Below, one piece after another: positions 9,356 through 62,459 of a stretch of DNA of 64,000 nucleotides (positions are counted from its first letter, which is position 1; each line of letters opens with the position of its first letter). Source of the DNA: a phage; NCBI GenBank assembly GCA_026066175.1, contig GCA_026066175.1_4721.1; one strand, written 5' to 3'. The translations under genes and the position numbers were made by a program. The notes under the pieces were generated by a model. It ran no database searches, was not told where the DNA came from, and saw nothing but the letters and a program-made list of their open reading frames with translations.

Positions 9356-9437
9356 CATTCACCTAGGTAATATAACCCTGAAATTTTTTTCAATATTGGT
9401 GCAACCTTATTGAACGATATAAACCCCCAGGTGAATG
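9356..9437 (-). promoter_or_regulatory. conserved AT-rich promoter-like element (TATTGAAAAAAAT..TATATTACCT) flanked by a 12-nt inverted repeat
   Basis: Plus 9365-9395 AGGTAATATAACCCTGAAATTTTTTTCAATA is near-identical to elements at 38275-38305 and 62429-62459. Inverted repeat arms CATTCACCTAGG (9356-9367) and CCAGGTGAATG (9427-9437). About 60-70 nt upstream of the ATG at 9296. Confidence 0.45.
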
Positions 9438-9534
9438 CTGCCGAGAAGCAACATTCTATCTACATATAATCAGGATATGTCTGTAAACTTTTACTTCTCG
9501 TCATATCCGTTTACTATCTTCTTACGGAGTTCGT

Positions 9535-10629
9535 ATGTTTCGTGTTTTAAATAACCTCCCGCGAACATCATCGGGTGTGCAACCCATCCCTCAGAAAGAC
9601 TACCTAATACGCGAAGTTCAAAGAAACCTACAGACAATCCAGAACCACTATCAAGGTTTTACCTTCGCGGTTCAGAGCGATCACATCCTTGCATTGCTGC
9701 TCGCACAGCTCCCTATGAGATACGACATCTCAGTACAAACTTACTACGACATGATCGCTGACCTTACACCAGAATTGGGGAATCGCGTTAAGCTAACAAC
9801 AGCGCGATACGCGGGTAAGTTATTTAACGGTGCGTTCTATCCAGGATTGCATGAAGCGATCATCGCAACCAGCGAAAGCCGTCTTATATCGCGTGACGTT
9901 CTCGATAACTGGCGTAACTGGTCTCCGGTCAGAATCGTGACACACCCCTACGCGAATCTTCGTTATATCCCTCTGCATCAAAAGCCGGTTGAAGAAGGAC
10001 GGGGTTTTGCAGTTATCATGATCGATGTTCCTTTATTAGCATTGCAGTATCGCATGTGGTCATTGGTCATGGGTCACAACGTCGATGGTAAATGGGTGGT
10101 TAAAGAACCCGTTACAAGTTTCATTGCCAGTTTTCCTTTGGTCAATGCGTTATATACACACAACGACGTGGCTATCCGCAATCGTTGCTTATGGGTACCT
10201 CCGGCTAAGAATCCGCTCAAGTCACCGATTTACGTCAACGATCTGGATAACGTTTTCAGTCAAGTGGTGCTGACCGTCCAACATCAGCTATTACGAAGAA
10301 AACGTAGTTACACCGACATGTTGAAACAGATACCGAGTTTATACGAGGATCAATTTCAAGCAACACGCATGGGTTACACGATCGATCTTCGACAAACACG
10401 GTGGGCAAGGGATCTCGGATGTTTGTCTTTATGGCAACAGCTTGTTACCTTGCAAAACGTTTCAGAAAGCGTCGGCTTCAGTAGTCAAACCGATAACGAC
10501 TTATATCGTGCAGCCGATCGAAGTCTAAAAGAAGGGAACTGGGAATCGTCTCCTTTACCCGGTGATCTACGACGTGAGGTTACCGCACAGGTTGCTGATC
10601 TTTTAAAAATTCTTCCCGCTGGTGTATAA
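9535..10629 (+). CDS. hypothetical protein
   Basis: 364-aa ORF with GGAG SD; diverges from the 632-aa gene across a 238-bp intergenic region. Confidence 0.55.
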   Translation: MFRVLNNLPRTSSGVQPIPQKDYLIREVQRNLQTIQNHYQGFTFAVQSDHILALLLAQLPMRYDISVQTYYDMIADLTPELGNRVKLTTARYAGKLFNGAFYPGLHEAIIATSESRLISRDVLDNWRNWSPVRIVTHPYANLRYIPLHQKPVEEGRGFAVIMIDVPLLALQYRMWSLVMGHNVDGKWVVKEPVTSFIASFPLVNALYTHNDVAIRNRCLWVPPAKNPLKSPIYVNDLDNVFSQVVLTVQHQLLRRKRSYTDMLKQIPSLYEDQFQATRMGYTIDLRQTRWARDLGCLSLWQQLVTLQNVSESVGFSSQTDNDLYRAADRSLKEGNWESSPLPGDLRREVTAQVADLLKILPAGV

Positions 10630-10631
10630 TC

Positions 10632-10663
10632 CCCTCCTCCTTCCCTGATGGGTTGGAGGAGGG
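10632..10663. terminator. bidirectional terminator hairpin between convergent genes
   Basis: 9-bp stem CCCTCCTCC / GGAGGAGGG with a 14-nt loop; near-identical to the hairpin at 60128-60160. Confidence 0.5.
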
Positions 10664-10668
10664 TTATG

Positions 10669-12822
10669 TTACTCTGCGGTTTCTTTTTTCGGTTGGTAGC
10701 TTGCAGCGATATCTTGGGCTAACAGTGTGTTGTTTTTATTCGAAATGAAAATACCGTAACTTTCCATTAATGCGTAATACGAGCGAACGAGTGTAGAAAT
10801 CAATCGACGAATATCCATACCTTGGATGAAAATATCGGGAAGCCCAGAGGCTTCGATCACCGGTAATGGTATCGTTAAATTGCTTATCGTTTTCTTATCG
10901 TTACGTACAATCCAATCACGGAAACGTTGTTGTAACCCTTTATCCTCCCAGGAATCAATCCAATCATTAAGAAGCGTTTTGTTCTTCGTTGCCAATGGTA
11001 CACGAACCCCAACATAAGGCGGTTCAGGGCAATGGCCGTACGATTGCGCAAACACCTCTTCCCACATGTCGTACGACTGCTTGGTAACCGCAACATGGGG
11101 TTTTACTTTAACGCGTGTTAAGAAATCAGGATCGCCGCGTTTCATCGATTCCACGATTTCGTTTTCTAACGCGATGATATCATCAAGTACCAATCTGATA
11201 CTGATCTTCTCGTTACGTAACAGTTTATCCATGATACCGCACATCATGCGCTCAACACGTTGTACGATCATTTTTGGTGCTGATGCGTCACGCATAACGG
11301 GACCTTTCAATTCCAGTTTCGGCGGATTGATTGGAACCCCTTCACGCATGGTCATGTAACCGTAATAGTTTTTACCCATTGAAGTCAACGACAGAATCAA
11401 GAACATATACTCGTTCTTCATTTCCATCACGTACATATGCTCTTTCGCGACGCCGATATTACCCGAACACATTGCCATCAGATGAACCGTAATCTGCGTA
11501 ACCAGGTAGATAAGCGTATTCGCTAAGCGCGTTGAAATCGGATTGATCTCCATGTTGCCAAACCGCCACTGAACCCACTCCTGACAGGTAAATACCGTTG
11601 AGTCGGTATCAGACAACACACCCACTTCACGGATGGCTGACGGAAACGCATAAACACCAGCGGGTTGGTTCTCGGTACGCCAGAACGCCATAATCAGGTC
11701 AGCGTAACTCTGGATACGCTGCAACATTAACTTTGTCGTGGCTGCGGTGAGACGATAACCCAGTTCGTTGCCTTTTTCTAACGCAACGTAAATCGCTTCA
11801 CCATTTAAGAACTCGGTACACTGTGCTGTAATCCAGGCAACCGTGTTATTATCCATGGATGCAATAATGGCTTTCGCCTCTTCCATCGTTTCAACAGGTT
11901 CGGTGGCCAATTCACATAACGAATCAAGGAACCCACGAACAAACTCAGGGTTCAGTTCGCGTAACGAATACAAGTTGTTGCTATACATGTAACAAGCACG
12001 TTCCAACGGCGTTAAGCCGTTAATCAACTCCTGAATGACCAGTTCTTTTTCCGGGTCGAAAATATAGCGATGCAGGCATTTTGATACATTAGCCCAAACC
12101 TCTTCCGGTGTCGGGTAATGTAGCTGGTATTTTACCATCACCTGCTCAATGGCTTTACGGTCGCTGTTACGGACAATGCTTACGATATTTTCAATCGCGA
12201 TATCACAATCGTAATAATGAAAATTACCTGCCAGGAACCGTTCGTTATTCGCATTCGCTGAACCGGAAGCGCATCGGCATGTCGTGGTTAAACTCGGGTG
12301 TGCGATCGGGTTATAAAAAGGATTGAATTTAGATGCCTGTGTTCCCGACAAACTGTTGTTGTCTAACTTGGTATTGGTCTGTCGTTTATCATGCAGTTCC
12401 GCTTCGTCTTTACGTCCATGCGCTTGTGCAATAGACATCTGTTTCTTTTGTTTCTTACGCAGCTTACCGTTTTCAACCGCAAAGTCGCTTAACACGCTGG
12501 AACGTGTTTCACGTGGATAACAGTTCGCCCATACCGGGGTAATGATTAAATTATTTTCTTTGATATCGTTGATATACTGACTGAACTTAATAAGTTCTTT
12601 TTCGCGGTTCCCTTCTGTACGTTGTGTTAAAACAAGACAGTCGGGATCGACCATCCCATGTGCACCACCTGGCTTGATGGTATCAAGTACGAACCGTAAT
12701 GCTTCTTGTTGAGAAATACCACGCATGCGCATTAAGAACAGGGTATAATCCTGCACCGCTTCTTTGGTCATATCCAACGTACGACCGTATCCGTTTTCGT
12801 CGTAAAAGAACGGATTTTCCAT
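10669..12822 (-). CDS. large hypothetical protein with polymerase-like motifs (possible divergent family-B-type DNA polymerase domain)
   Basis: 717-aa ORF, GGAGG SD. Motifs in family-B order: YSNNLYSL (motif A-like), KLMLQRIQSYA (motif B-like), VLSDTDSTVF (YGDTDS-like motif C), GKNYY (KxY-like). Weak; no Walker motif. Confidence 0.35.
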   Translation of the reverse strand: MENPFFYDENGYGRTLDMTKEAVQDYTLFLMRMRGISQQEALRFVLDTIKPGGAHGMVDPDCLVLTQRTEGNREKELIKFSQYINDIKENNLIITPVWANCYPRETRSSVLSDFAVENGKLRKKQKKQMSIAQAHGRKDEAELHDKRQTNTKLDNNSLSGTQASKFNPFYNPIAHPSLTTTCRCASGSANANNERFLAGNFHYYDCDIAIENIVSIVRNSDRKAIEQVMVKYQLHYPTPEEVWANVSKCLHRYIFDPEKELVIQELINGLTPLERACYMYSNNLYSLRELNPEFVRGFLDSLCELATEPVETMEEAKAIIASMDNNTVAWITAQCTEFLNGEAIYVALEKGNELGYRLTAATTKLMLQRIQSYADLIMAFWRTENQPAGVYAFPSAIREVGVLSDTDSTVFTCQEWVQWRFGNMEINPISTRLANTLIYLVTQITVHLMAMCSGNIGVAKEHMYVMEMKNEYMFLILSLTSMGKNYYGYMTMREGVPINPPKLELKGPVMRDASAPKMIVQRVERMMCGIMDKLLRNEKISIRLVLDDIIALENEIVESMKRGDPDFLTRVKVKPHVAVTKQSYDMWEEVFAQSYGHCPEPPYVGVRVPLATKNKTLLNDWIDSWEDKGLQQRFRDWIVRNDKKTISNLTIPLPVIEASGLPDIFIQGMDIRRLISTLVRSYYALMESYGIFISNKNNTLLAQDIAASYQPKKETAE

Positions 12823-12882
12823 AAACCCTCCAAAAGTCGTGTAGCCTATCTACATCATCTCGTATATCTGTTAAAAAAGAAA

Positions 12883-12925
12883 GACGGCATAAAAAAGAAC
12901 CGATCCAGCCGAAGCCAGATCGGTT
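12883..12925 (-). terminator. rho-independent terminator plus conserved TTTATGCCGTC motif
   Basis: Minus strand reads AACCGATCTGGCTTCGGCTGGATCGGTT hairpin (8-bp stem), then CTTTTTTATGCCGTCTTTCTTTTTT, about 65 nt upstream of ATG 12822. Confidence 0.55.
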
Positions 12926-13131
12926 GAAAGGATATTAATAACAGGGAAATGAAAGTGTGACTGAAAGATATCGATGATGTTCGTGAAATAAGATCTCTCG
13001 TATACAGTGATGCCAGATCAGAGGGAGGTTGTAAACGAGAGACGGTTCACTAAAGGAGTAACAAACGCGAACCTATCTTATTTCACCGATGGCGCTAACC
13101 ACTCAAAATATATAGTGCTGTATGTAAAAGT

Positions 13132-13545: not shown

Positions 13546-13556
13546 AATAGCATCCT

Positions 13557-22814: not shown

Positions 22815-23398
22815 GGGACATAAACCTCCATCAACATCGCATAAAGCGCACCAAGCCCGTGTAGGACTCGGTTAGGGGCAAAGGTAGGTGTATAGCAGAC
22901 TTGTTCAGTGGGCGCTTGCTGACGCAGATCGAGAGGATCCCCGTTGATAAGCATTTGTAGAAGATCGGTGTCGTCCTGTAAGGTATCTTCATCGATATAC
23001 GCATCAACACAGAGCAGTCGATGTAACTGTTCGGGTTTAATTGAGATGCCGACAACCATGCAGTTGTTGTAGGTCGCGTTGTCCAGAAAGAAGTGAATAA
23101 CCCCTGCTTGCGGATCGCCGCTGTAATGCAGCCATTGAGTAAAACCCGCCGACATCATCCACAACGGGTTATGTTGCAATGCGCCGACAACACGGGTTTC
23201 GAATTCCAAACCGAACTTCTGGAAGATCGCGCCCATCTGGAAACGATCTTCATCCAAACGGTAACGGAAGATACAGGCATCAGAGCCTGTTGAGTTATCA
23301 TACACCGAAAGATACCCACGATGGATTTCCACGGTAACGTTGTTATCATTAAGCGTAGCGCTTGCGACGCCGTTAGCAAAGGTTGGTACAAAGCTCAT
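22799..23398 (-). CDS. hypothetical protein
   Basis: 199-aa ORF. Confidence 0.45.
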   Translation of the reverse strand: MSFVPTFANGVASATLNDNNVTVEIHRGYLSVYDNSTGSDACIFRYRLDEDRFQMGAIFQKFGLEFETRVVGALQHNPLWMMSAGFTQWLHYSGDPQAGVIHFFLDNATYNNCMVVGISIKPEQLHRLLCVDAYIDEDTLQDDTDLLQMLINGDPLDLRQQAPTEQVCYTPTFAPNRVLHGLGALYAMLMEVYVPCFKN

Positions 23399-23973
23399 CT
23401 TGTAATCCTTAATTTACCTGAATGAATGATTGTTGTTGGGTCGACGACGCGACCGTATTTCGCGTTACGTAGTACACGATGCCCAAAGAAGTCAGCGGTT
23501 TCTAACACAACCGTATAACAACCCAGTTGATGTTGGTGCCCCCAAAACCGCTCAATGGGAATCCAGCATGGTGTCATGCCTTTATGTCGCCAATCGGTAA
23601 CGCAACCAAATTCAGCAAACTGCTCAGTAAACCACTCGTCGATATCGGTATCCGTAAAGAGAAAGACATGATCTCTAACCAGATAAGCGAATCCAGGATA
23701 AAAAAGCTGCGGGTCGTCAGCGTCACGAAGATAGACACGAAGTTTATCTAACGTGCCCTCGATAACGATCGTATCGGGTAATCCTGGCGGTGTGAATCGA
23801 AGTTGGAAATTATCCTCGTTTGCTGAAGCGTTAACCAAATACCCCAATTGAAGAGGTCGATGCAATTCGAAGAGATTGAACGTTAGTGCATATTCGATAT
23901 ACTCTAATCCTATATTCATGTTTGACCTATGTGGTATGGATGACATTACGTTGCCTTCCGCGGATATAATCAT
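23395..23973 (-). CDS. hypothetical protein
   Basis: 192-aa ORF; ATGA-type overlap with the downstream gene; promoter-like element variant immediately upstream. Confidence 0.5.
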   Translation of the reverse strand: MIISAEGNVMSSIPHRSNMNIGLEYIEYALTFNLFELHRPLQLGYLVNASANEDNFQLRFTPPGLPDTIVIEGTLDKLRVYLRDADDPQLFYPGFAYLVRDHVFLFTDTDIDEWFTEQFAEFGCVTDWRHKGMTPCWIPIERFWGHQHQLGCYTVVLETADFFGHRVLRNAKYGRVVDPTTIIHSGKLRITR

Positions 23974-23974
23974 G

Positions 23975-24000
23975 AAGGTAATGTAGGTTTATTTTAATCT
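23975..24000 (-). promoter_or_regulatory. variant of the AT-rich promoter-like element (AAAATAAACCTACATTACCTTCATGAT on minus strand)
   Basis: Shares the GAAGGTAAT core and flanking ATCATGAAGG with the element at 62429-62459; sits in a divergent intergenic region. Confidence 0.35.
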
Positions 24001-33477: not shown

Positions 33478-33489
33478 TGGTAATATTTT
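33478..33489 (-). promoter_or_regulatory. variant ATATTACC promoter-like core
   Basis: Minus strand AAAATATTACCATTATG in the divergent intergenic region 33417-33561. Confidence 0.3.
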
Positions 33490-33561
33490 ACGTAATGCCT
33501 ATGACATTGTGTCACGTGTGCAATTATGTCATACAATTTCCTTAATTTAAGGAGAGTTATA

Positions 33562-36615: not shown

Positions 36616-37155
36616 TTACTGTTGGTTCTTAGCTTCACGAATGAAAATGACATCAGGGTATTCTTGGGATTCAATGAATTCAGGATTACGATAACGACGA
36701 ATATGACGCATTGTCGTACAAGCAAGTTTGTAAAGATGTTCCTCCTCACGTTGTGTTAATAACATCAGTTGCGCGTCTGGAATCACGAATGGGAGTCTTT
36801 CATTCACGTATTCCCGAAGGTCATCGAGATCATCGTGATGAATGCCCTCTGAGAGCTTATATAACGCTTCCAGCAATTCTAATCCACCGAACTGGTAACT
36901 TCCTATTGTCGTCTTAAACAATGCGCCAGAACGCGTGGTGGATGCTCTATCGGCGACATCGTATTGTTCTAACATATATCCGTAGACCATGCTACGTCGA
37001 TCCAGTGTATCCGTAACGAGATTACGCCACCGTTCCAGTCTTTCGAGCGCTTTGTCGATAGAGTAAACGATCATGCCATGTTCATCCAACTCTTCCGCAA
37101 TACCCAATAGTTCATTGTTGTTAGGTTTTGCTGCACCGATAAGAAAAACACTCAT
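36616..37155 (-). CDS. hypothetical protein
   Basis: 179-aa ORF. Confidence 0.5.
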   Translation of the reverse strand: MSVFLIGAAKPNNNELLGIAEELDEHGMIVYSIDKALERLERWRNLVTDTLDRRSMVYGYMLEQYDVADRASTTRSGALFKTTIGSYQFGGLELLEALYKLSEGIHHDDLDDLREYVNERLPFVIPDAQLMLLTQREEEHLYKLACTTMRHIRRYRNPEFIESQEYPDVIFIREAKNQQ

Positions 37156-37568
37156 TACTCAAACTCCTTATTCCAAAACTCGATTAATGAATCGAGCTGT
37201 TCCTTACTGGTTATCTCACCTCCCCTAACAAAATGAAATCGTTCCTGAATGGCGATCTTTTCAAGGATATCGGTAAGCAAATGACGGTGACAGAAATTTC
37301 CTGCAGGACAATAACACCCTAACACCACAACAGGATGGGAGAATAAAACCAACCATTCCGGTGTATGATCAACAAAGCTTTTGCGCATAAGCGCGTAGTA
37401 GCCTGTGGTATATTCATCCTCGGTTAACGTTTTTGATTTGATTCCTGTAACAAGTTCCCATGAAGGTGCGAAGAGTGGGTTACCTGTTTTCACCGTCGTG
37501 TCCAGTAGGAACGCTCGTGTGTCTGAAAGCCAACGATGTTTGGCTAATTGAAGGGTGTATAAAAACAC
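37155..37568 (-). CDS. hypothetical protein
   Basis: 137-aa ORF; start/stop overlap with the downstream gene. Confidence 0.5.
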   Translation of the reverse strand: MFLYTLQLAKHRWLSDTRAFLLDTTVKTGNPLFAPSWELVTGIKSKTLTEDEYTTGYYALMRKSFVDHTPEWLVLFSHPVVVLGCYCPAGNFCHRHLLTDILEKIAIQERFHFVRGGEITSKEQLDSLIEFWNKEFE

Positions 37569-37673: not shown

Positions 37674-38153
37674 TTAGCCTTTCAGCAGCTCAGCTGCATA
37701 TGCACTGATGTTATCGCGAATATGCTTAACCTGAGTTGTTGGGAAGGATTTCTTATACGCGGTAGTCAGACGTCCGTAAACCTGTTTCTTCTCGTTAGAG
37801 CCGAAACCAACTTCAGCGCTACGTTGAACGGTTGCTGATACAACGTCTTTACCCAGCGGCAGCGTAACAGAAACAACGTCAACCTGCTTGTTGTCTGCCA
37901 TGAACTGCGCACCAACGCGACCCACTGCCAGGCCATGAGCCAGACCGATGTCTGTTGTCAGTTTCTGTGCTTTTTCCAGGATTTCTTTTTCTTCTGGTGT
38001 TACCAGCGTACCAATGAAATCACTGCCCAGCTTCTGGCTACCTGATTCGTCCAGTTTGAGACCAGCAGCGATTTTATCAGAAAGAGCCTGAACTTCCGGA
38101 CGTACGTTAGAAGTGGTTTCAGTCGCTACGGTGGTTTCTACTGCTTCAGACAT
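37674..38153 (-). CDS. small abundant hydrophilic protein (function unknown)
   Basis: Start at M12 (GGAG SD), about 159 aa. High-expression codon usage; own promoter-like element upstream and a hairpin plus T-run downstream (37608-37650). Confidence 0.5.
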   Translation of the reverse strand: MSEAVETTVATETTSNVRPEVQALSDKIAAGLKLDESGSQKLGSDFIGTLVTPEEKEILEKAQKLTTDIGLAHGLAVGRVGAQFMADNKQVDVVSVTLPLGKDVVSATVQRSAEVGFGSNEKKQVYGRLTTAYKKSFPTTQVKHIRDNISAYAAELLKG

Positions 38154-38274
38154 GTTAGTACTCCAATTAGTTTTTCGATCGATCAAAAGGATAAAATCAG
38201 AAGATTCTTTTCTTCATAGGGAAAACACAAGTCGGTTAAGGTTTACTTCTCAAACTCCTTGCGTTCTATCAGTT

Positions 38275-38305
38275 AGGTAATATAGACCTCAACTTTTTTC
38301 CAATA
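38275..38305 (-). promoter_or_regulatory. conserved AT-rich promoter-like element
   Basis: Plus AGGTAATATAGACCTCAACTTTTTTCCAATA (minus TATTGGAAAAAAGTTGAGGTCTATATTACCT). Overlaps the last codons of gene 38289..39086 and lies about 120 nt upstream of gene 37674..38153. No plus-strand gene is downstream, which fixes its orientation as minus. Confidence 0.45.
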
Positions 38306-39086
38306 ATGCCGCAACGGAACGGGCGAATCGGATAACCTTGTAGTTGCGTGTCTGTGTGACATCTTCCCCATCGCTGTCCTCTTCGGACGGATCTTCCCAC
38401 GTGAACTCTTGTTCCTCCGCTTTCTGGAGGTAACGATACAACTGCACCATACTGCGGGCTGTCGGAGAGATCGCTTGAAGTTCAGTTAAGTCATCTTCCG
38501 TCAACAACACGTGCGGTGAACGCAGCGGTTCCATCGTGGTATTGCATAACAGACGAATCAGAAGATCCACGCATGGAATAATCGAACCTGGTGACGCGAT
38601 TTCAGGATGCAGCGTATACTGCCAATATACAGTGTTGTAATACGTCAATACCGCAGGTAACGACGGGTGTTCCATTACACGTGCGATTTGCTGTCTTACG
38701 ATTGATGCGCGATCATTCAGAACATCAAGCGTGATCTGTTGTGGTTCCATCACCGCCATTGAAATGCCGTATGCGTCAGCCACGCCCAGGATTTCATGAA
38801 GGGACTGATGTTCTTCTTCAACAGATGTTGTTCCAACGGCTTTACGTCCAGCCAGCTCAATAAGCATGGGTGTAACGGTCTCTTTAACCGCGTTAAAAGA
38901 AGCCTGGTAAGCATGCTTGTGGAGATACAACGTCCAGGCTAATGCACGTTCTGCCGTATGCAGAAGATCAACATAAGACAGATCTTGATAACAAGGTCCG
39001 TATACGCTTACGGCAAGCTTGGTGGCTTTCTCGGATGCAGCCATAATAGCATCCGGTGATTTAGGCATATCGCGTTCTTCTTGCAT
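38289..39086 (-). CDS. hypothetical protein
   Basis: 265-aa ORF. Confidence 0.5.
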   Translation of the reverse strand: MQEERDMPKSPDAIMAASEKATKLAVSVYGPCYQDLSYVDLLHTAERALAWTLYLHKHAYQASFNAVKETVTPMLIELAGRKAVGTTSVEEEHQSLHEILGVADAYGISMAVMEPQQITLDVLNDRASIVRQQIARVMEHPSLPAVLTYYNTVYWQYTLHPEIASPGSIIPCVDLLIRLLCNTTMEPLRSPHVLLTEDDLTELQAISPTARSMVQLYRYLQKAEEQEFTWEDPSEEDSDGEDVTQTRNYKVIRFARSVAALLEKS

Positions 39087-43471: not shown

Positions 43472-44602
43472 TTATTTGGCTTCATTAAAATAAATATCAA
43501 CGGCACGTTCCGTTGCGTAGAGAAGACCCAGATTCACGGTCCCTACCACTTCCGGTGAACCGATGATACGGTTAGCGATACTGGTGCCACTGAAGATAGC
43601 ATCAAGGGTGTGCCCGTCTTCGGTTTTGTTCACACCATGACCCACGGAAGAGACAACGGATTTCGCCTGTGCGGCGAAGGTACCTTTATCCCCCATTCCC
43701 GCACCAAGGTCGTAACGCATGAAAATACGGATCGCGATCTGGTTCTCACCTAACGGATTACCGTCTATTCTCACGTTACTGTTATTGATGCGTCCCGTTG
43801 TTGCTTCGTTGAGTTTCAGTTCCTTAACACGTTTAGCTCGCGCCTTATCAGCGTCACCCACAAGTGCTGCCATGGTTTCGCTCATGTCTTCAATCTGAGC
43901 GCGGTACAACACATCGATCTGTACGACTTCACCATGCACGTCAGCGCGTGGGTTATACTGACTCATACGGCGTAACGCTTCAACCGCTTCCTGACTTTCA
44001 TCGCTCAGATCGGTTGCAATAGGTTCTTCCAGTGTTGCCAGGATCGTCCGAGGTTCAACATGATCGCCGATTTTCACCAAACCACGAATGTTGAGATGAG
44101 CGTCAACAATGAGCGTACGGCTCTTAATCGATGGGGTTACGAGACGATCGGCAAGATTGTCGAAGATATACGAACTGTCCTCGTGCGTTTCTGGAATATC
44201 CAGAATACCAACCAGAGACAACACGCCTGCGCGCCAAACAACCTGACCTGGGTTCCACCAATCCCGTTTAAAATAAAGACGATGGAAAACCACTACATCC
44301 TGGTCCTTAACGCGATCCCCGACTTTATAATCGGTAATGAGATCGTGAGGATAATACTTACCTGGTCCTTTCCCGATTATCGTACCGAGTTGGAAAACCT
44401 CTTCCCCTAATTCTGGATCGTCGTATTGTATCGTAAGCGCTGTTTTGGTGACCTTCTTCACAACACCATCGCCTTGAGCAGCTGCTGCGAAGAGTTTACC
44501 AACACGATGCGCGATAACAGTCTCGCCACCAGTGCGCCATGGTTGTACGTCGTAACCTTCAGCGGCTATCATGCGGTTGTGTTGGATGCCTATAAACACC
44601 AA
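43472..44602 (-). CDS. RNAP beta subunit, middle segment (probable exon 2 of an intron-split beta gene)
   Basis: [28 protein letters not shown] matches beta [35 protein letters not shown]...[21 protein letters not shown] matches beta GRHGNKGVIS...[22 protein letters not shown]. The tracked ORF begins at a TTG, not ATG, consistent with an internal exon. Confidence 0.6.
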   Translation of the reverse strand: [376 protein letters not shown]

Positions 44603-46273
44603 TCTCTTGGGCGAATTTAGTTCTTATTCAGTATTAACATACCGTTACCGAAATAAGACTGAGATTAGATTGTTCAGATAAGGTCGTTAATCTTATCCCG
44701 GAGGTGATGATAGGCACATCACCTCCCGCTTACGTTCTCACGCAAGAGCAGACTATATCACATCTCGTTTCAAACGGTGCTTCTTCAGCACCTCAACGAG
44801 AGTTCACTTCTTCCCAGCGCATCCAGCGCCATTCTCTTATCCAAGGAGAATGCCTCACTCGAGGGGTACAGGGGGATGAATCCCTTAGTCGTTGAACCGT
44901 CACCCTAGAACGTTTCACAACGATCCTTAGGCGATTGGCTGCGGATTACCCTTGGCCTGCGGACCACGAACTTTTGTCGCGGTCAACTCTTCATTTTTAA
45001 AGCCTGCTTCACGAGCAATACGTCTCGCTTCTCGCACGTCTAACGTTTCCGTTTCCGCTTTGGCTGAAGGCAGCATTGGGCGTCCCCGCAATTCAATGAA
45101 TCTCGTCCATACGTCACCGTATAAACGGACCCGCTCTTTGTAAACAGAATAGTAGATATAACGTTTTCCGTCAGGAAATTTAGTCATTCCATCCGACTTT
45201 AAACGGTAATTGAGTAACGTAGTAGATATACCCATTTCTTCAGCGCAATCGACGGCCGAAAGGTACAACAGAGGTACATCATTTTCAGGAATGACGACAA
45301 TAGCACGTTTGTTGGTTGTCTTCTCCAACTCCAGGATACTATCTTCGACTTCTCGCCATGGCGTCTCATCAGTAACCCACTTAACTTGATAACAACCATT
45401 AACGACAGGTTGGTTCTTGTCGTTAACGTACATCGACGCAGTGGATAACTTAACACCAATGTGATTCGCGAATTCAGTCAATGATTCGAAAAGATGAATC
45501 TCTTTTGTTATCGTTGACCTTGCAATCACACCCTTACTTCCCGTATCCGTCAACGTTGCTAACTCGTATTTGGTGGGAATACGCCATGGTTCATCGCCGT
45601 AATCTTTGCGGTACTGCTTACGTTCAGGAAACGCTCGCTGTTTGCCTCTATAGACACGATGATGAATGAAGTCGATATTCACACCAAGATCGCGTGCCGC
45701 TTCCGTCATGGATGGATATCTGGTTACAACACCGGTATCAACATCACGAACCTGAATAGGTTTACCGTAGGCAGCAATTGAACGTTTACGCATGTTCATA
45801 ATGCGAGCATGCTGATTGTTCTCTTTCTGCGTAACCCATTCAAGATTGTCATTCTCGGCGTTACCGTCGGGATCAAGGTAGTTATTAAGTCTGTTGCCGT
45901 CCTTGTGGTTCACATGGAGCAAATGCGCATCATCGATGTTACGGAACGTTAACATTAGAAGCCTGTGCATGGAACGGTAAACCAATGTTCCATCGTGACC
46001 TCGAAACGAATAACGATAATACCCAGCAATGATGGTGGGCAAATATTCAAACTTCGATTCCTTGTTACGCAATGTTCCATCTATGGATATCTCCAGGAAC
46101 GGGAATTCCGGTACGGTCTTAAATACCTTCTCACTCATTGACTATATTCCTCTTGTGCAGTGAAACTAACTACACTTTCGTAATATAGCCTTAATTCTGT
46201 TTACATTGAAGCCTTAATCATCTCTATCAGCAGCAGGTACTGCAAGTGCTGATGTACTCATTATTGACGAGCT
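44603..46273 (-). mobile_element. group I intron (td-like) carrying an HNH homing endonuclease ORF; boundaries approximate
   Basis: Minus-strand core elements 3' of the HNH ORF: Q GGGTAATCCGCAGCC (overlapping the last HNH codons, about 44950-44937), R GGTTCAACGACTAAGGG (about 44899-44883), S GATATAGTC (about 44760-44752), then P9-like hairpins. Beta homology in the upstream ORF ends at ...SVYGETKPYDEKTDG. Confidence 0.55.
44927..46138 (-). CDS. HNH homing endonuclease (intron-encoded)
   Basis: 403 aa; HNH motif HVNHKDGNRLNNYLDPDGNAENDNLEWVTQKENNQHA; basic C-terminal DNA-binding-like region; lies between two beta segments. Confidence 0.8.
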   Translation of the reverse strand: MSEKVFKTVPEFPFLEISIDGTLRNKESKFEYLPTIIAGYYRYSFRGHDGTLVYRSMHRLLMLTFRNIDDAHLLHVNHKDGNRLNNYLDPDGNAENDNLEWVTQKENNQHARIMNMRKRSIAAYGKPIQVRDVDTGVVTRYPSMTEAARDLGVNIDFIHHRVYRGKQRAFPERKQYRKDYGDEPWRIPTKYELATLTDTGSKGVIARSTITKEIHLFESLTEFANHIGVKLSTASMYVNDKNQPVVNGCYQVKWVTDETPWREVEDSILELEKTTNKRAIVVIPENDVPLLYLSAVDCAEEMGISTTLLNYRLKSDGMTKFPDGKRYIYYSVYKERVRLYGDVWTRFIELRGRPMLPSAKAETETLDVREARRIAREAGFKNEELTATKVRGPQAKGNPQPIA

Positions 46274-49200
46274 ACCATCCGTTTTCTCGTCGTAGGGTTT
46301 CGTTTCACCGTATACAGACACAATGTTTGCGTTAGGTGCGAGGTAAGCAGAAATACCTACGTCCCCACTATCCTTCGTACCTTCGGATACAACACCAATG
46401 TCCGACTTGTCGTACTCACGATCGCGTGCGCGTCGAAGCGATGTTTTCGAACGACCCCCGATACCGGTCATCGTTGCTTCTTCACCCTGCTTGATATCCA
46501 GCATCGGGTTGGTTTCATCGATGACGATAGAAGCACTGTCGTCAAGGATTTGGTTCCAAACGCTCACCGGACTGATTGAGATCTTCTGTCGGTTGCCTTG
46601 GCTGCTGTTCTCGTTTTGACGAATAGCACCAACCAGATCCTTATACACCAACTCAGCGAACTTATCGTACGTTTTGAAGCGCTGGTAGTTCACGTCGTTC
46701 GTGTTAGGTGCCCAATCGTCCAGAAGCAGTTCAACCGCACGTAATAACAACATGGCGAAATCAGTCGGTTCGCCCATGTTCTGTAATAACGTACGACTTA
46801 CCGGGTCGACGAAAAGACGCTCCATGAGTTCAAGTTCGCGAAGATGACGAACCTTAAGACCTGCACCATCGACAACGTTAAAATAGATATCCCGATTGTC
46901 GAAAGCACCTCGAGCGTAACCAATGTAGTTACGGTATTCGTTGAATCCGCCTAACAACAATGTCGTCATTCGATCATCTTTACTGAAGATCAAACTTTCA
47001 TCGTCGAAGCTCACCGCGAATTCATCCGATGCTAATCCCATACGAGAACCACGAGGTACCGTACGGTAGTTCGCTTTAAGATGTTCTAATAACGGTGTAA
47101 GACCACCTAAGTAACTTAACACAACACCAACCGGAATACGTACGCCCATGAACTCAAGGTCAGCGGCTTCGATGGGCATCTTCGCGGCATTGATACCGAA
47201 GAAATCAGGGAACGTTCCAACCGGCGTTGGGGTTTGATTCGGTTCGTAAACGTATAACTGATTCTGACCATCCACCGCCAGGAATTCGCCGTTGGTGTTT
47301 TTGGCGAACGTTAAGAATCCACCCGCCAGCTGTTCGGTGAATAAATCTTCACCGATGTGTTCCGGCAACGTTTTGATATCGAGGCGTATGTCCCAATCCG
47401 CAAATTGGATTTGGGTGTAGTTACGTGCAAGCACCGCGAAGTAATACGGAACTTTGACAGACGGATCAAAGACGTTACCACGTTTTAAGGTGGTTAAGGG
47501 CGAGGTTTTATCGTAATACATCGCTGTGAGTTGACGTGTTAACCAACGACCAGCATTATTAACCACGCGTTCTGAACGCTTAACGAACACCTTACCGTAG
47601 GCGGTACTCAACGCAACTTCGGATGACGATACCTTTCTGATTGGTTTATCGACACGTTGTTTACGCATTCGATATTTAATGCCGTTAACGACATAAATGC
47701 CGTCCTTACGAACCTTCGGTAACATCACCGGGAACGTGGTCGGAACACCGCCTACCGGAGCCAGCTTGATCGTGATGACCTGGTAATCACCCATCACGTC
47801 AACAACATCTTCAACTTTATATCCGGTAACAGGATAGCCCGCTTGCTGCACCGCCACAACGGCTGCTGCGATGTCCTTTTGCATGACATGTTCGACGTAG
47901 TGTTTATCCCATACGGCAAGCGTCGATTTGCACAAGCTCTTATCAACGATAACGTCCGCTTCCGGCATCACCTTCTCAGGTGCTAATTTCGCGGCTTTTG
48001 GTTTAACCTCAACGTATTCAGCAAGCGTGAGTCCAGAACCGTCAGGTGCTTCAATTTCATGAATCGCGTCAGCGTTACGCATCGCTGCTTTATATTGAAC
48101 GCCGCTTAATTGACCAGCATCCGCGAGGTCGCTTGCACGTACCAGCACTGCATCGGATAACGACTGAATATATTCACCGTGCGTTTTCGGTAACGTTGCC
48201 GCATCGAAGACATCAACTTTTTCTTCCGGCATGTCATCGTTGACAACCTCAAAGAGATCATCGGTGATGTCTTGATCTTCGTCCGGTTGAAAATCGGGCT
48301 GAACTTCAACGCCAGGGACTTCACGAACATCTTCAAACGCACGTTCAACAACCGCGTTCCATGCTTCAGCGTCGTCATCTTCATCCGATCCTCCGATCAA
48401 CTCGCTTTCCAGTTCATCGGGGTCAAGAACGGTATCAAGGTCCTCACCGTTAGGAAGCACGACATCACGTTCATCGTACTCCGCATCGGGACTGTCTGCG
48501 AGAATATCACGCTCTTGACGAAGAACCTGCTCCTCTTCTTGTTTCTGTTCTTCTTCATTGGCGCTCTGCGACCACAGACGGGTTACCGCCATCATCCAAC
48601 GACGCTGGAACGTTTCAAGCGTTGTCTTATCAAGTTCCTCGCCTTCCTTCGCTAAACCCGAACGCCATTCTTCCATTAAACCAAGATTCAGAGTAAAGAA
48701 ATAGACGCCGTCCGTAAATACAACGTTAAGCTTATCCAGCGAAGCACGGTCCAATGATACCATCGTGCTGTTCTCACGATCGACACCTAACCAACGGAAG
48801 AAGTCAAAGAACGACAGCTCCTCGGAGGTGGCAAAATTCATGAGGTTATTACGGGTTGGGGCTTGTTGTGTCGTACGCATCAACGATATCTTCGGTAACG
48901 TCGACGGGATACGGAATAACAAGAACTGCTGACGGTCGCTTTGTTGGGCGATCTCGTTTGCTTGCGTCCAAATCGTTTTACGCACGTTGAACCATTCATC
49001 ATACCAACGGGTCAGTGTCGGACGATAGATGTACATGTGGTTAAGATGCGCATAGTTAGCCACGATCTGGGCGTTGATGTTCTTCTCAACCTTGCTAAGA
49101 TCGGTGACCAAACGAAAACGACGATGCGATGCACGGTAATCCAGTTTCGCACGCGGTAGCTGGAATCGCTGATCGCGTCGAGGTGCGCCTTGCTTGGTTG

Positions 49201-49423
49201 CAAGATCATCCGCGAATGATATCCAAAGCTGGGCGCTTTCTTTGCTCAGCATGTATTCGTTTTCAGGAGGACCGATTAACGAAGGATCGGTTGCTGTATA
49301 ATGATAAACCGCATAACGCGGCAGCTGCAAAAGCTGCACCAAACGCAATCTAGGTGATAATAACTCTTGATAACGTCGTACACCGAATTGTCTGTAGTAA
49401 TCAAGGTATTTAAGTTTTGCCAT
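46214..49423 (-). CDS. RNAP beta subunit, N-terminal segment (virion-RNAP-like set); last ~20 codons may be intronic read-through
   Basis: 1069 aa. C-terminal TGIGGRSKTSLRRARDREYD...EGTKDSGDVGISAYLAPNANIVSVYGETKPY matches beta LGPGGLTRERAGFEVRDVH...[30 protein letters not shown]. Start is translationally coupled to the upstream beta-prime gene. Confidence 0.6.
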   Translation of the reverse strand: MAKLKYLDYYRQFGVRRYQELLSPRLRLVQLLQLPRYAVYHYTATDPSLIGPPENEYMLSKESAQLWISFADDLATKQGAPRRDQRFQLPRAKLDYRASHRRFRLVTDLSKVEKNINAQIVANYAHLNHMYIYRPTLTRWYDEWFNVRKTIWTQANEIAQQSDRQQFLLFRIPSTLPKISLMRTTQQAPTRNNLMNFATSEELSFFDFFRWLGVDRENSTMVSLDRASLDKLNVVFTDGVYFFTLNLGLMEEWRSGLAKEGEELDKTTLETFQRRWMMAVTRLWSQSANEEEQKQEEEQVLRQERDILADSPDAEYDERDVVLPNGEDLDTVLDPDELESELIGGSDEDDDAEAWNAVVERAFEDVREVPGVEVQPDFQPDEDQDITDDLFEVVNDDMPEEKVDVFDAATLPKTHGEYIQSLSDAVLVRASDLADAGQLSGVQYKAAMRNADAIHEIEAPDGSGLTLAEYVEVKPKAAKLAPEKVMPEADVIVDKSLCKSTLAVWDKHYVEHVMQKDIAAAVVAVQQAGYPVTGYKVEDVVDVMGDYQVITIKLAPVGGVPTTFPVMLPKVRKDGIYVVNGIKYRMRKQRVDKPIRKVSSSEVALSTAYGKVFVKRSERVVNNAGRWLTRQLTAMYYDKTSPLTTLKRGNVFDPSVKVPYYFAVLARNYTQIQFADWDIRLDIKTLPEHIGEDLFTEQLAGGFLTFAKNTNGEFLAVDGQNQLYVYEPNQTPTPVGTFPDFFGINAAKMPIEAADLEFMGVRIPVGVVLSYLGGLTPLLEHLKANYRTVPRGSRMGLASDEFAVSFDDESLIFSKDDRMTTLLLGGFNEYRNYIGYARGAFDNRDIYFNVVDGAGLKVRHLRELELMERLFVDPVSRTLLQNMGEPTDFAMLLLRAVELLLDDWAPNTNDVNYQRFKTYDKFAELVYKDLVGAIRQNENSSQGNRQKISISPVSVWNQILDDSASIVIDETNPMLDIKQGEEATMTGIGGRSKTSLRRARDREYDKSDIGVVSEGTKDSGDVGISAYLAPNANIVSVYGETKPYDEKTDGSSSIMSTSALAVPAADRDD

Positions 49424-49426
49424 GAG

Positions 49427-51106
49427 TTAGGCTCCACGAGGTCCCGTTAAGTTGCGTAATAGGAACGCAACCGTATCGTAACCAATATCAATGTTGAATT
49501 TATTTTTACCGCTTACCCAGAAAGCACGCTTCTTGTGCGAGTTGGTAATTTCGTCGATGGCTTCCATGGAATAAAGAACGTTAACAGAGACCGTATCACC
49601 GTCGAAATCGGCCCCGAGCCCGGCGAGAAACACTTGGCCGACTTGGGTCGTTTCTACGAACGATGCTTTTAATGACCAATCTGGGTATTCCCACGCCATA
49701 TAACGATAGCCTTCCATCGGTTGCCAGCTATCGTCGAGTTCTATTCTCGGTTTTGTATTAACCGTCGTTCTCACATAGCAAGTTAACGGTATAACTGACT
49801 GCATCCCGGATACCGGATAACGTGTAACCATCGCACCGAGTTTATTCCAAAGATGGTAACCACTCAGATAAATCAACTCGCAATAGGTAATTGGGTGAAC
49901 ATTCGCACCAGGTTTGTTAAGCATCTCTGGTGGTAATTCACTCATACCACGGAACAGCCGGAATGAGTTGTTGTTCACATAGACCAAACAGAGATAGCGA
50001 CCATTCACCATGATAGGTTCGTTACGTACACCAGGATCGCTTAGGGTGTTTAATAAACGTTCGATGCCGTCCCAGGTTGTAAAGTCATCGATGGTATCTG
50101 GGTCTAGCGTGACACGTTCACGTTCCATCGTTTCGGTATCGATAAGCTCAGCTTCAGTAACATCGCGAACAAAGATTTCTTGTAATATCCCTGTACGTAA
50201 CGCATGTTGCGTTATCGGAAGGGCTGCTTTGCTCATCTGGTATAGGCCGAGCTGTACAGACGTACACGATGTTTGGTTTGGAGAGCCAAGAACTTCGGTC
50301 GTTGGAATAACTGCTGAAATAACGTTACGGGTTGAGTTCCAAACACGACGTGAACCGAACTTACCTTGGAAGATCCCTTTCTTACCCTGGAACATATCCA
50401 ACAGCAATGCGTAGATATCATTGAAGGTTCTTTGCAGGCTCCAGCGCTGTCCGTCGTAGACAGGATCGTTGTAGTCCTTTAACCCATCGGGAACGGTATT
50501 GGAGATAGCAAGGAAACGACGATAAAGCTCCGTGATTTCTTGTTCGCTTTCATACCCGCCTTCTTTTACTTCTATTTCACGAAGACCAGCAGGTAACACC
50601 AATAAATGACGGGTCATCGCTTTGAACATGTTTTCTTCGACAACTTTAATACGCAGTTCTCGTTGCGCTGAACCTGTTGAAACGAACATGATCTCCGCAA
50701 CGTGTTGTGCGAAGAAACCGTAGCCGGTTTGTCCCGTTAACGCATCAGCGGCAACGAAATCACGTTGTTCTGGATCCCATCGCGCATAAGCTTTACCGGA
50801 CATGATATCGCCATAAAGGTGTTTCAATCGAATAAGGCGATCGTAAATGACCGGATGCAAGATTTCCACTTTACACTCGATGACCGCAAAGCGGCGATCA
50901 CGATCTTCGCTTCCCGCGCTCCCAAAAATGGTGTACGAATAAAAACCATCGTCATGGAAATTACCCGTGCTCGGGTCGCGGATACTCATGCTGGTAATCT
51001 TAGGAAGGAAACGCAACTGCTGCTTATCAAGATGCAGTATACTGATATTGAACGGCTCTCTGACTTTAGCCATGGATGCACTCCTTAAATAAGGCGGCGG
51101 TATCAT
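49427..51106 (-). CDS. RNAP beta-prime N-terminal fragment with catalytic DFDGD motif (virion-RNAP-like set)
   Basis: 559 aa. FQGKKGIFQGKFGSRRVWNSTRNVISAVIP (beta-prime lid/rudder region) and LAGLGADFDGDTVSVNVLYSMEA (NADFDGD Mg-binding motif). My line count puts the start ATG 1 nt off the tracked coordinate; tracked coordinates are used. Confidence 0.8.
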   Translation of the reverse strand: MIPPPYLRSASMAKVREPFNISILHLDKQQLRFLPKITSMSIRDPSTGNFHDDGFYSYTIFGSAGSEDRDRRFAVIECKVEILHPVIYDRLIRLKHLYGDIMSGKAYARWDPEQRDFVAADALTGQTGYGFFAQHVAEIMFVSTGSAQRELRIKVVEENMFKAMTRHLLVLPAGLREIEVKEGGYESEQEITELYRRFLAISNTVPDGLKDYNDPVYDGQRWSLQRTFNDIYALLLDMFQGKKGIFQGKFGSRRVWNSTRNVISAVIPTTEVLGSPNQTSCTSVQLGLYQMSKAALPITQHALRTGILQEIFVRDVTEAELIDTETMERERVTLDPDTIDDFTTWDGIERLLNTLSDPGVRNEPIMVNGRYLCLVYVNNNSFRLFRGMSELPPEMLNKPGANVHPITYCELIYLSGYHLWNKLGAMVTRYPVSGMQSVIPLTCYVRTTVNTKPRIELDDSWQPMEGYRYMAWEYPDWSLKASFVETTQVGQVFLAGLGADFDGDTVSVNVLYSMEAIDEITNSHKKRAFWVSGKNKFNIDIGYDTVAFLLRNLTGPRGA

Positions 51107-57918: not shown

Positions 57919-57924
57919 TCATTA

Positions 57925-57947
57925 GTTCGGGGTGGGGAATCCCCACC
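57925..57947 (+). terminator. hairpin after the giant gene (terminator/attenuator)
   Basis: 9-bp stem GGGGTGGGG / CCCCACCCC with loop AAT; only a short T-tract follows, then the SD of the next gene. Confidence 0.35.
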
Positions 57948-57968
57948 CCCCTTCTTGAGGAATGGTAC

Positions 57969-60110: not shown

Positions 60111-60127
60111 TATTCGCTGCATAGAGC

Positions 60128-60160
60128 CCTCCTCCTTCCCTTCCGGGTTGGAGGAGGGCT
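60128..60160. terminator. bidirectional terminator hairpin (same repeat family as 10632-10663)
   Basis: Stem GCCCTCCTCC / GGAGGAGGGC with loop TTCCCTTCCGGGTT. Confidence 0.5.
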
Positions 60161-60164
60161 TATG

Positions 60165-61232: not shown

Positions 61233-61261
61233 CACGTCCTCCTGAAAAAGAAAAAAGAAAT

Positions 61262-61296
61262 ACGGCATAAAGCCTACCCACACAATGGTGGGTAGG
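61262..61296 (-). promoter_or_regulatory. terminator hairpin plus TTTATGCCGTA motif
   Basis: Minus strand 11-bp-stem hairpin AGCCTACCCAC / GTGGGTAGGCT followed by TTTATGCCGTATTTCTTTTTT, about 26 nt upstream of ATG 61232. Confidence 0.5.
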
Positions 61297-61314
61297 CTAA
61301 GATCAACATCGATG

Positions 61315-61827
61315 TTAAACTTCTTCGTTTTCTGAACCTAATGATTCAGCATCTGGATCGTCAACAGGAACGGTTGCATCAAAATACCGCTTCGTATGCG
61401 TGGTTGTGTACCCTACGCTATCCGTAATGGAAATCGTAAACGTCACTTCCCTTGCACGTATTAAACGCAACTTGTTCATGAAGTTCCGAAAAGGCATGGA
61501 TCCACGATTCAACTCCTTGATGACGTTTCCTCGAATGCTGGAAATGTCTTTATTCGTTTTATCGGGATGCCGTTTCTTCACGTCACGCATATGTCGGGTG
61601 ATATACGAATTGAGCTGATTTGCGCCGATCCCTCTCTCCGTATAAATCTGCAACAAGAACTCCGTCAGGAAATCCTGTCTACCCGTAGGCGTCCAGAAGT
61701 TGTTACCGTGGTTATAGTTAGTCGCTCGTCCTCGATTACTTTGAGGATTTTCATCATCGCTTTCGTCACGACGCTTAAGCGGATTAATGCGTGCGCGAAA
61801 AGAGACTTCGTTATATTTATCTATCAT
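61315..61827 (-). CDS. hypothetical protein (start uncertain)
   Basis: Tracked ORF 61315..61872 begins at a TTG; first ATG at 61827; basic protein. Confidence 0.4.
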   Translation of the reverse strand: MIDKYNEVSFRARINPLKRRDESDDENPQSNRGRATNYNHGNNFWTPTGRQDFLTEFLLQIYTERGIGANQLNSYITRHMRDVKKRHPDKTNKDISSIRGNVIKELNRGSMPFRNFMNKLRLIRAREVTFTISITDSVGYTTTHTKRYFDATVPVDDPDAESLGSENEEV

Positions 61828-62339
61828 AGTACACCAGTGTATTGACTGAGTGCGAAGGTTAGGAGTTCGCAACAGTCTCTCGCTAGTTTCCTTGTTTTGC
61901 GTAATCCATAAGCCGCATCCAAATCGTCACGTTCCGCCAGCGCGTCTAACCACGTCGCAAGTATGCGTCCATACTCGATAACGTCACGCATGAGAACGTC
62001 GAACTGGATAACACGACCATCGGCATCAGCAAGCCAACGATTGAATGTAATTTGTGGTGCTAATATTGCATAGGTTCTCTCCTCTAATGTTATTATGTTT
62101 ATGTTGCCTTCGTTATCGAACGCTTGATGCCAACGGCGTAGGTCAAGCATCAACGACTCAGCATCCATATACCACAACGGTAAATACGTTTTACGTGCAA
62201 CACGTATATCGTAGATGTTGTGAACCCAGGACGTTGTTTTATAGAGCAACAAGAGTTCGTTTAACCGTTGCCTATCATCTTGAAACGTCTTCCTTTTATA
62301 ACGTTGGAAAGCACGCCTCAAGAAAAAGCGATGTAACAT
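61824..62339 (-). CDS. hypothetical protein
   Basis: 171-aa ORF; the AT-rich promoter-like element lies about 90 nt upstream. Confidence 0.5.
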   Translation of the reverse strand: MLHRFFLRRAFQRYKRKTFQDDRQRLNELLLLYKTTSWVHNIYDIRVARKTYLPLWYMDAESLMLDLRRWHQAFDNEGNINIITLEERTYAILAPQITFNRWLADADGRVIQFDVLMRDVIEYGRILATWLDALAERDDLDAAYGLRKTRKLARDCCELLTFALSQYTGVL

Positions 62340-62428
62340 GGCATCACCTATGTATCATTCTTGCAGGTATCAATGATACCGTCACAAGAAGGTAACGTTT
62401 TACGTCGCCTCCATGACTGTTATCATGA

Positions 62429-62459
62429 AGGTAATATAGTCCTGATATTTTTTTCAATA
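62429..62459 (-). promoter_or_regulatory. conserved AT-rich promoter-like element
   Basis: Plus AGGTAATATAGTCCTGATATTTTTTTCAATA (minus TATTGAAAAAAATATCAGGACTATATTACCT), in the divergent intergenic region 62340-62473. Confidence 0.45.

Follow-up and report, generated by a model that had tools for sequence, protein, structure and literature searches.

The DNA analysed here was a stretch of 64,000 nucleotides (nt) from a phage (NCBI GenBank assembly GCA_026066175.1, contig GCA_026066175.1_4721.1), the whole of which is referred to as the window. The window belongs to a Goslar-like, nucleus-forming jumbo phage: bases 7000–12000 matched the E. coli phage Goslar (NC_048170) over their full length with 89% nt identity, and no other phage record gave a DNA-level match to these bases. 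The subject of the analysis was an AT-rich element of about 31 nt upstream of selected minus-strand genes. An earlier reading, made from the letters of the window without database searches (the sequence-only reading), had proposed this element as a candidate promoter for a phage RNA polymerase (RNAP). The results suggested that the element is very probably an early-class promoter of a Goslar-like chimallivirus.

The repeated element and the genes behind it

The element was present in three copies on the minus strand, at 9365–9395, 38275–38305, and 62429–62459, which read TATTGAAAAAAATTTCAGGGTTATATTACCT, TATTGGAAAAAAGTTGAGGTCTATATTACCT, and TATTGAAAAAAATATCAGGACTATATTACCT, respectively. A spaced-pattern search of the window with up to three mismatches returned exactly 3 matches, against 0 in 100 dinucleotide-preserving shuffles, and the copies listed by the sequence-only reading were thereby confirmed. 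The second copy deviated from the consensus written for them at two positions, with GG for GA and G for T. The distances claimed between the copies and the start codons also held (69, 122, and 90 nt from core to ATG), as did the overlap of the copy at 38275 with the stop of a minus-strand open reading frame (ORF, 38289–39086). The 10-mer core alone, with one mismatch allowed, was found 6 times in the window against 2.85 expected, which was not significant. Therefore, the signal resides in the whole 31 nt.

A position matrix was built from Goslar sites, with one-mismatch core matches from the window and the assembled Goslar genome as the starting point. The resulting family was 33 nt long and had the structure (A-tract)-TTTCAsGnC-TAYATTAC-N6-GA, with the consensus TTTCAsGnC-TAYATTAC-yTnnnT-GA. 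The matrix scan of Goslar gave 14 sites, 12 of them at 34–40 bits and 2 at 25–28 bits, and the remainder scored 12 bits or less. The scan of the window gave five sites at 25–40 bits, whereas no score above 18.1 bits was reached in 50 random windows. The core was TATATTAC or TACATTAC at all five window sites and at 13 of the 14 Goslar sites; the weak Goslar site at 151616 has TACATAAC. A G(A) stood 7 nt after the core (N6-G, usually as TGA) at every window site and at 13/14 Goslar sites. Counted from the predicted start, four of the five window sites had TTT at −23 to −21, and three had an A7 tract at −31 to −24.

Two forms of the element could be distinguished. Class A carries TATTGrAAAAAA just upstream of TTTCAsG and was found at chimallin, at a 159-aa (amino acid) gene, at a 171-aa gene, and at Goslar gp040. 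Class B has TAAyNCA... in place of the class-A A-tract. Of the five window sites, the sequence-only reading had seen three, all of one sub-class, and had missed the strong site at 3485–3517.

The putative class-A promoter at 9356–9395 (minus strand; matrix 9356–9388, 39.6 bits, 33/33 identical in Goslar) consists of the A-tract TATTGAAAAAAA at 9384–9395, TTTCAGGGT at 9375–9383, and the core TATATTAC at 9367–9374. Its predicted start is the G at 9360, 64 nt before the ATG at 9296. The first gene behind this start encodes chimallin (ChmA, the nuclear shell protein; 7398–9296, minus strand, 632 aa). The identity of this gene, named earlier as a candidate chimallin, was borne out by 93.8% aa identity to Goslar chimallin, which is annotated as nuclear shell protein in NC_048170; the identity was 24% to phiKZ gp54 and about 24% to other chimalliviruses. 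Downstream of chimallin lies the gene for the N-terminal β′ subunit of the non-virion RNAP (nvRNAP; 6040–7305, minus strand), which is phiKZ gp55-like (tblastn against phiKZ 47923–49170, 31% identity, E = 4e-61).

The putative class-A promoter at 38266–38305 (minus strand; matrix 38266–38298, 34.4 bits, 33/33 identical in Goslar) has TATTGGAAAAAA at 38294–38305, the core TATATTAC at 38277–38284, and a predicted start G at 38270, 117 nt before the ATG at 38153. The first gene behind it encodes a 159-aa hypothetical protein (37674–38153, minus strand), the orthologue of Goslar gp214, with the gene start set by alignment to Goslar. This protein matched phrog_9746, a group of unknown function, and a Pfam search with it gave no match. 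The next gene, at 37155–37568, is phiKZ gp151-like (44% identity between Goslar gp215 and phiKZ gp151). The third putative class-A promoter, at 62420–62459 (minus strand; matrix 62420–62452, 37.9 bits, 31/33 identical in Goslar), lies in a divergent intergenic spacer. It has TATTGAAAAAAA at 62448–62459, the core at 62431–62438, and a predicted start G at 62424, 85 nt before the ATG at 62339, and is followed by the gene for a 171-aa hypothetical protein (61824–62339, minus strand; Goslar gp200 orthologue).

The putative class-B promoter at 3485–3517 (minus strand, 33.5 bits) reads TTTCACGGC-TATATTAC-TTCTGT-GAT, with the core at 3496–3503 and a predicted start G at 3489, about 95 nt before the ATG at 3394. 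Behind it lies the gene for a 154-aa hypothetical protein (2930–3394, minus strand; Goslar gp182 orthologue). The orthologous Goslar site, 166051–166083, scored 39.9 bits. Compared with Goslar, the window has a 16-nt insertion at this site, yet TAC-N6-GA was kept, being recreated by the insertion. The insertion (about 3470–3493, minus strand) contains the palindrome CTGTGAT-AC-ATCACAG and lies exactly at the predicted start.

A weaker family member was located at 23967–23999 (minus strand), in a spacer that also lies in front of a divergent gene. It scored 25.0 bits, with 18.1 as the highest random score, and 32 of its 33 positions agree with Goslar. It reads AAATAAACC-TACATTAC-CTTCAT-GAT, with the core at 23978–23985 and a predicted start G at 23971, 52 nt before the ATG at 23919 of the gene for a 174-aa hypothetical protein (23395–23919, minus strand; Goslar gp225 orthologue). 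Family searches with the 171-aa, 154-aa, and 174-aa proteins gave no family match, and no function was assigned. Weaker variants had been suggested by the sequence-only reading at about 23975–24000 and at 33478–33489. The former is this genuine weaker member; the latter does not belong to the family, as it scored below 6 bits and has AATATTACC only, without the T-tract and without the TGA.

All 19 family sites (14 in Goslar and 5 in the window) lie on the gene strand, which is the minus strand throughout, and each Goslar site is 20–200 nt upstream of a minus-strand gene. A comparison of intergenic with coding DNA, suggested earlier as a check, was made on the 8-nt core, with ORF-free DNA defined as DNA outside ATG-ORFs of at least 100 aa (9.2% of the Goslar genome). 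The cores were in ORF-free DNA at 13/14 Goslar sites (P = 4e-13) and at 5/5 window sites (P = 7e-6). The downstream genes include chimallin and nvRNAP β′, a gp68–70-like trio, a gp121–123-like operon, and another nvRNAP subunit; the remaining ones encode many small proteins without family assignment. No site was found before the terminase, sheath, gp181-like, or capsid genes, and none precedes a gene identified as structural.

These data also bear on whether the family is a dispersed repeat that plays no part in transcription, such as a chance family, a mobile-element remnant, a terminator, or an N4-type hairpin. Class-B sites do contain a partial inverted repeat, TTCAC...GTGAA. However, its arms are complementary at 2–5 of 5 positions, with no compensatory change where one arm varies. 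Similarity stops at the edges of an element of about 40 nt, the family is strictly co-oriented with genes in ORF-free DNA, and it is conserved across five genera. The probability of a dispersed repeat was considered negligible. A hairpin promoter of the kind used by the N4 virion RNAP was rejected because the stem showed no covariation, and an intrinsic terminator (a G+C-rich stem-loop followed by a T run) was rejected because none was found at the three copies.

Relation to promoters of phiKZ and other jumbo phages

The likeness to early promoters of phiKZ-like phages, which the sequence-only reading had noted, was correct. The core TATATTAC is the published phiKZ core, given in a table of predicted promoters (PMC7058600 Table 2), and the chimallin copy aligned without gaps to P54E, the promoter of phiKZ gp54, which has been employed experimentally as an early promoter (PMC4666361). 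The gapless alignment covers about 40 nt, over which the region upstream of phiKZ gp54 reads AATGAAAAAAATTTGAGATTTATATTACTAAATTGAA and the window chimallin copy reads TATTGAAAAAAATTTCAGGGTTATATTACCTAGGTGAA. In a longer stretch (GTAATGAAAAAAATTTGAGATTTATATTACTAAATTGAATC in phiKZ and ATATTGAAAAAAATTTCAGGGTTATATTACCTAGGTGAATG in the window), the blocks and their spacings are the same, and the distance from TGA to ATG is nearly equal (66 nt for phiKZ gp54 and 64 nt for window chimallin). Upstream of chimallin, PhiPA3, RAY, and Eowyn carry TATATyAC-N6-G, and PhiPA3 and RAY also carry the A7 tract. Seven chimallin-upstream sequences could be aligned without gaps over 51 columns.

The phiKZ sites were derived from the full phiKZ genome by an iterated matrix with a cut-off of at least 18 bits. 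This gave 32 sites, all on the gene strand, in agreement with the 28–32 early promoters published for phiKZ, whose −10 element is described as AT-rich and which are T-rich in a block upstream of −19. Promoter positions common to the Goslar family and phiKZ were chmA/gp55, gp68–70, and the gp121–123 operon after the capsid gene. Both sets have the core TATATTAC, a TGA five bases past it, and a T-run with TTTsAG about 20 nt upstream of the start; one sub-class also has an A-tract farther upstream, at about 30 nt. Both stand before chimallin and nvRNAP β′ and before gp68-like and gp121–123-like operons. The two sets differ in the −20 element, which is TTTCACGGC or TTTCAGGGT here and TTTAAACAG or TTTGAGATC in phiKZ, and in the bases after the core (CCT or CTT here, TAA or AAA in phiKZ). 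They also differ in site number (14 in Goslar, about 32 in phiKZ) and in genome G+C (47% against 37% in phiKZ).

The element could instead be a middle-class or dual early/middle promoter read by a non-virion RNAP. The phiKZ middle motif AAAATTACC resembles ATATTACC and overlaps in sequence with TATATTACC, class-A sites have an A-rich run as phiKZ middle promoters do, and phiKZ gp54 itself has an early primary start together with a middle-type secondary start. The ATTACC string is common to the window element and the phiKZ middle promoters (AAAATTACC ... TATG). In phiKZ P78M, however, AAAATTACC lies about 16 nt before a TATG start, and in the phiKZ middle class the motif has its centre near −22 to −24; neither this centring nor the TATG start is present here. 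The conserved downstream element of the window family is TGA, 5 nt past ACC, with no conserved TATG, and the full 40-nt register fits the phiKZ early sites, not P78M. A middle or dual promoter was considered very unlikely, and the phiKZ middle/late promoter reading was rejected because the spacing is wrong and TATG is absent. A separate string at 33478–33495 (minus strand), AAAATATTACCATTATGC, lies upstream of a virion-protein gene and holds ATTACC and TATG, both strings of phiKZ middle/late promoters. Its spacing is unlike that of P78M, and it is not a member of the early family.

Promoters of the same type have been predicted for other jumbo phages. In PMC7058600 Table 2, the 201phi2-1 promoter is given as ...TTTRARR_BTATATTACDWHDGTG and the N1M2 promoter as TBYAWWWWWTTTCARRYAKATATTATYWAAGTGWA; the predicted N1M2/OBP promoters contain WWWWWTTTCARRYAKATATTATYWAAGTG, and N1M2, OBP, 201phi2-1, EL, and phiKZ have the skeleton in common. 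A manual count gave 27/31 matching positions between N1M2 WWWWWTTTCARRYAKATATTATYWAAGTGWA and the window chmA copy AAAAATTTCAGGGTTATATTACCTAGGTGAA. The N1M2, OBP, 201phi2-1, and EL promoters were predicted, like the window family, from over-representation upstream of genes. The core ends in TAC in the window, phiKZ, and 201phi2-1 but in TAT in N1M2, OBP, and EL, and the phages of the N1M2 table have about 31 copies. The AR9 early promoters, AAATATATATTAT-(6N)-G(+1), share the AT-rich core ending in TATTAY and the six-base spacer to the initiating G. AR9 differs in being a non-chimallivirus with uracil DNA, and its upstream part is a plain AT run without the TTTCAsG element or the A-tract.

This distribution is relevant to a further alternative, namely that E. 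coli RNA polymerase reads the element as a host σ70 promoter, whose −35 hexamer would be TTGAAA and whose −10 hexamer would be TATATT. Both hexamers are present in class-A copies, and an AT-rich −10-like hexamer is common to the element and σ70 promoters. However, the TTGAAA–TATATT spacer is 13 nt, against 16–18 nt for σ70, class-B members are without TTGAAA, and the core ends in a conserved C, which does not fit TATAAT. In addition, phages of Pseudomonas, Erwinia, and Klebsiella also have the motif, and phiKZ transcription is independent of host RNAP. A host promoter is extremely improbable; it was rejected on the 13-nt spacer and on a consensus scan, which gave no minus-strand match at the three copies.

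Viral contigs were scanned with GAAAAAAA-N9-TATATTAC. Most matches were chance matches in AT-rich contigs, and the useful yield was three Goslar-like contigs, one phiKZ-like contig, and one 223-kb contig with an intermediate motif. Further Goslar-like metagenome genomes were the IMG/VR contigs L043, L078/L081, and L114 (237,533 bp, 182,865 bp, and one other). Their chimallin and gp200 promoters are identical, and their chimallin is 94% identical to that of the window. The jumbo-phage contig L082 (IMGVR_UViG_3300011906_000002, 223,076 bp) has two family sites, at 848–880 and 3283–3315, within 3.6 kb. One of these reads ATGAAAAAAATCTCAGATCTATATTACCTAGGTGAG, intermediate between the Goslar and phiKZ forms.

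The window element is the Goslarvirus member of the known phiKZ-like early-promoter family, an identification that is correct but largely expected. Because the family is known, the novelty is modest, and the result is a confirmation and extension, not a discovery. No promoter description for Goslar-type phages was found in the searchable literature; the Goslar genome paper makes no mention of promoters, and the Goslar RefSeq record annotates terminators only. Goslar-type phages serve as the E. coli model of nucleus-forming phages, and the 5 window sites and 14 Goslar sites give them a concrete map of promoters. The map predicts exact starts, which can be checked with existing 5-min RNA-seq data, and it offers short, portable early promoters for engineering, including the chimallin driver. 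The putative promoter of the virion polymerase is deeply conserved, with its signal persisting across genera whose proteins have diverged to about 24% identity.

Predicted start points, polymerase, and sub-classes

In AR9, early transcription starts at a G six bases after TATATTAT, which was mapped as the start by differential RNA sequencing (dRNA-seq), and reviews put the conserved core at about −10 from the start. When the N6-G rule was applied to phiKZ, the median 5′ untranslated region was 37 nt, and the published typical length in phiKZ is 31–40 nt. On the basis of the AR9 spacing, the core at about −10, the conserved G, and the agreement in phiKZ, transcription in the window was predicted to start at 3489, 9360, 23971, 38270, and 62424. 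The Goslar counterparts of these predicted starts are 166055, 172964, 187625, 201930, and 226681, respectively.

Transcripts of Goslar chmA are present at 5 min and reach a normal level in infections arrested at the vesicle stage, where the vesicle holds the virion RNAP (vRNAP). The capsid, portal, and sheath genes are not transcribed under the 5 min/vesicle-arrest condition in which chmA is. A GFP-tagged Goslar vRNAP subunit enters with the injected DNA. The expression of chmA, together with the homology to phiKZ early promoters, points to the vRNAP, and the element is most likely read by the injected enzyme.

In the proposed mechanism, a multisubunit vRNAP, partly encoded at 43472–51106, would be injected together with the DNA and would recognise a three-part duplex signal in a fixed register. 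The first part would be the −10-like core TAYATTAC at about −14 to −7, the second TTTCAsG at about −23 to −17, and the third, in one sub-class only, the A7 tract at about −31 to −24. Initiation would take place at the G (or the next A) of the conserved TGA, seven bases past the core. The five window sites would thus drive chimallin with the nvRNAP β′ subunit, as well as four clusters of small genes of unknown function, and these four non-chimallin units would probably also be expressed early.

A phage or host regulatory protein, acting at an operator or activator site, might bind the element in place of a polymerase. The data on position and orientation do not separate a promoter from a promoter-proximal factor site, and the upstream halves of class A and class B differ, as factor sites might. 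Against this, it is this core, placed at this distance from mapped starts, that defines early promoters in phiKZ, 201phi2-1, and AR9, and early transcription in phages of the phiKZ/AR9 type requires no new protein synthesis. The core is asymmetric without a dyad, and the partial TTCAC/GTGAA symmetry shows no covariation. A regulatory site was considered very unlikely.

Several points weigh against an early promoter read by the vRNAP. To our knowledge, no vRNAP of the family is known to read such a promoter in vitro. All five Goslar sites of the matching region were kept in the window, with 22–33/33 identity and four of them at 31–33/33, but this footprint is only weak evidence because the flanks themselves are 81–94% identical and a footprint has little power at such a distance. 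Of the 249 Goslar genes, 175 are transcribed at 5 min. Set against the 14 Goslar sites, this number requires long units or other early signals.

A further point of this kind concerns the start itself. In a figure legend of the Goslar preprint, the first nt of the chmA "TSS sequence" (TSS, transcription start site) is placed 91 nt upstream of the ATG, while the start predicted for Goslar chmA by N6-G is 66 nt upstream. The legend gives the value of 91 nt for the next gene as well, and there the position −91 falls two bases past the chmA stop. Therefore, as far as the legend goes, −91 was read as the left edge of the displayed stretch. If −91 in that legend were the real start, the model would be off by 25 nt, and the element would overlap the start rather than precede it.

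The 32 phiKZ sites split sharply into two groups: 13 read TATTCAAACCATTTTAAACAG-TATATTAC, and 19 read CTAAAAAAAgTTTrAGATC-TATATTAC. The 19-site group heads gp54/55, gp68, gp71–74, and gp121–123, which together make up the full set of nvRNAP operons. When models trained on phiKZ were applied, every class-A site of Goslar and the window fell on the side of the 19-site group (+3 to +20 bits), whereas class-B sites were mixed (−19 to +6 bits). As class A was consistent but class B mixed, the existence of two conserved sub-classes was only partly supported and is no more than suggestive. No description of this split was found in the literature on phiKZ-like promoters accessible to search.

Goslarvirus, Phikzvirus, Miltoncavirus, and Agricanvirus all have the A-tract form in front of chimallin, a protein with only about 22–25% identity between these genera. 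This conservation at chimallin is the sole part of the results beyond expectation. It is possible, though doubtful, that the A-tract copies form a distinct, ancient sub-class of vRNAP promoters (ATTGAAAAAAA, TTTsAG, and the core) that is regulated differently from the other class. If so, strength or timing might distinguish the sub-classes, or promoters of the A-tract class might stay in use once the genome has moved into the nucleus. They would then give a sequence handle on the ordering of the first minutes of infection.

Other genes and sequence features of the window

The vRNAP genes lie at 43472–51106 on the minus strand. The gene at 49427–51106 is phiKZ gp180-like, and those at 46214–49423 and 43472–44602 are phiKZ gp178-like (tblastn against phiKZ, E = 5e-96, 5e-139, and 3e-80). 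Other phiKZ homologues encoded in the window are gp50 (DNA polymerase), PhuZ, terminase, sheath, and gp181/182. The gp178-like gene is split into its two parts (46214–49423 and 43472–44602) by a group I intron and an HNH ORF. The intron was matched by Rfam at 44729–45152, and the HNH endonuclease ORF, which is phiKZ gp56-like, lies at 44927–46138. A promoter-like string, GGCTATATTAC-GAAAGT-G, was observed at 46169–46201 (minus strand), 35 nt upstream of the HNH ORF in the intron; it is sub-threshold, with 10.6 bits, under the random maximum of 18. AR9 likewise has an early promoter and a gene inside an intron.

Downstream of the nvRNAP β′ gene, the window (5052–6039) is about 1 kb shorter than Goslar (167607–169638). 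The Goslar segment encodes an HNH endonuclease and has a group I intron in its annotation; window 5052–6039 contains no ORF of at least 80 aa and gave no Rfam intron match. Between the chimallin stop and the nvRNAP β′ start, a hairpin, GGGAGGGAGGG-CAA-CCTCCCTCCC followed by TTAT, was found at 7330–7362 (minus strand). The most enriched intergenic 8-mers in Goslar were polypurine/polypyrimidine hairpin words (CCTTCCCT, GGAGGAGG, and CCCTTAC), which are similar to a conserved terminator motif of phiKZ that ends in TTAT.

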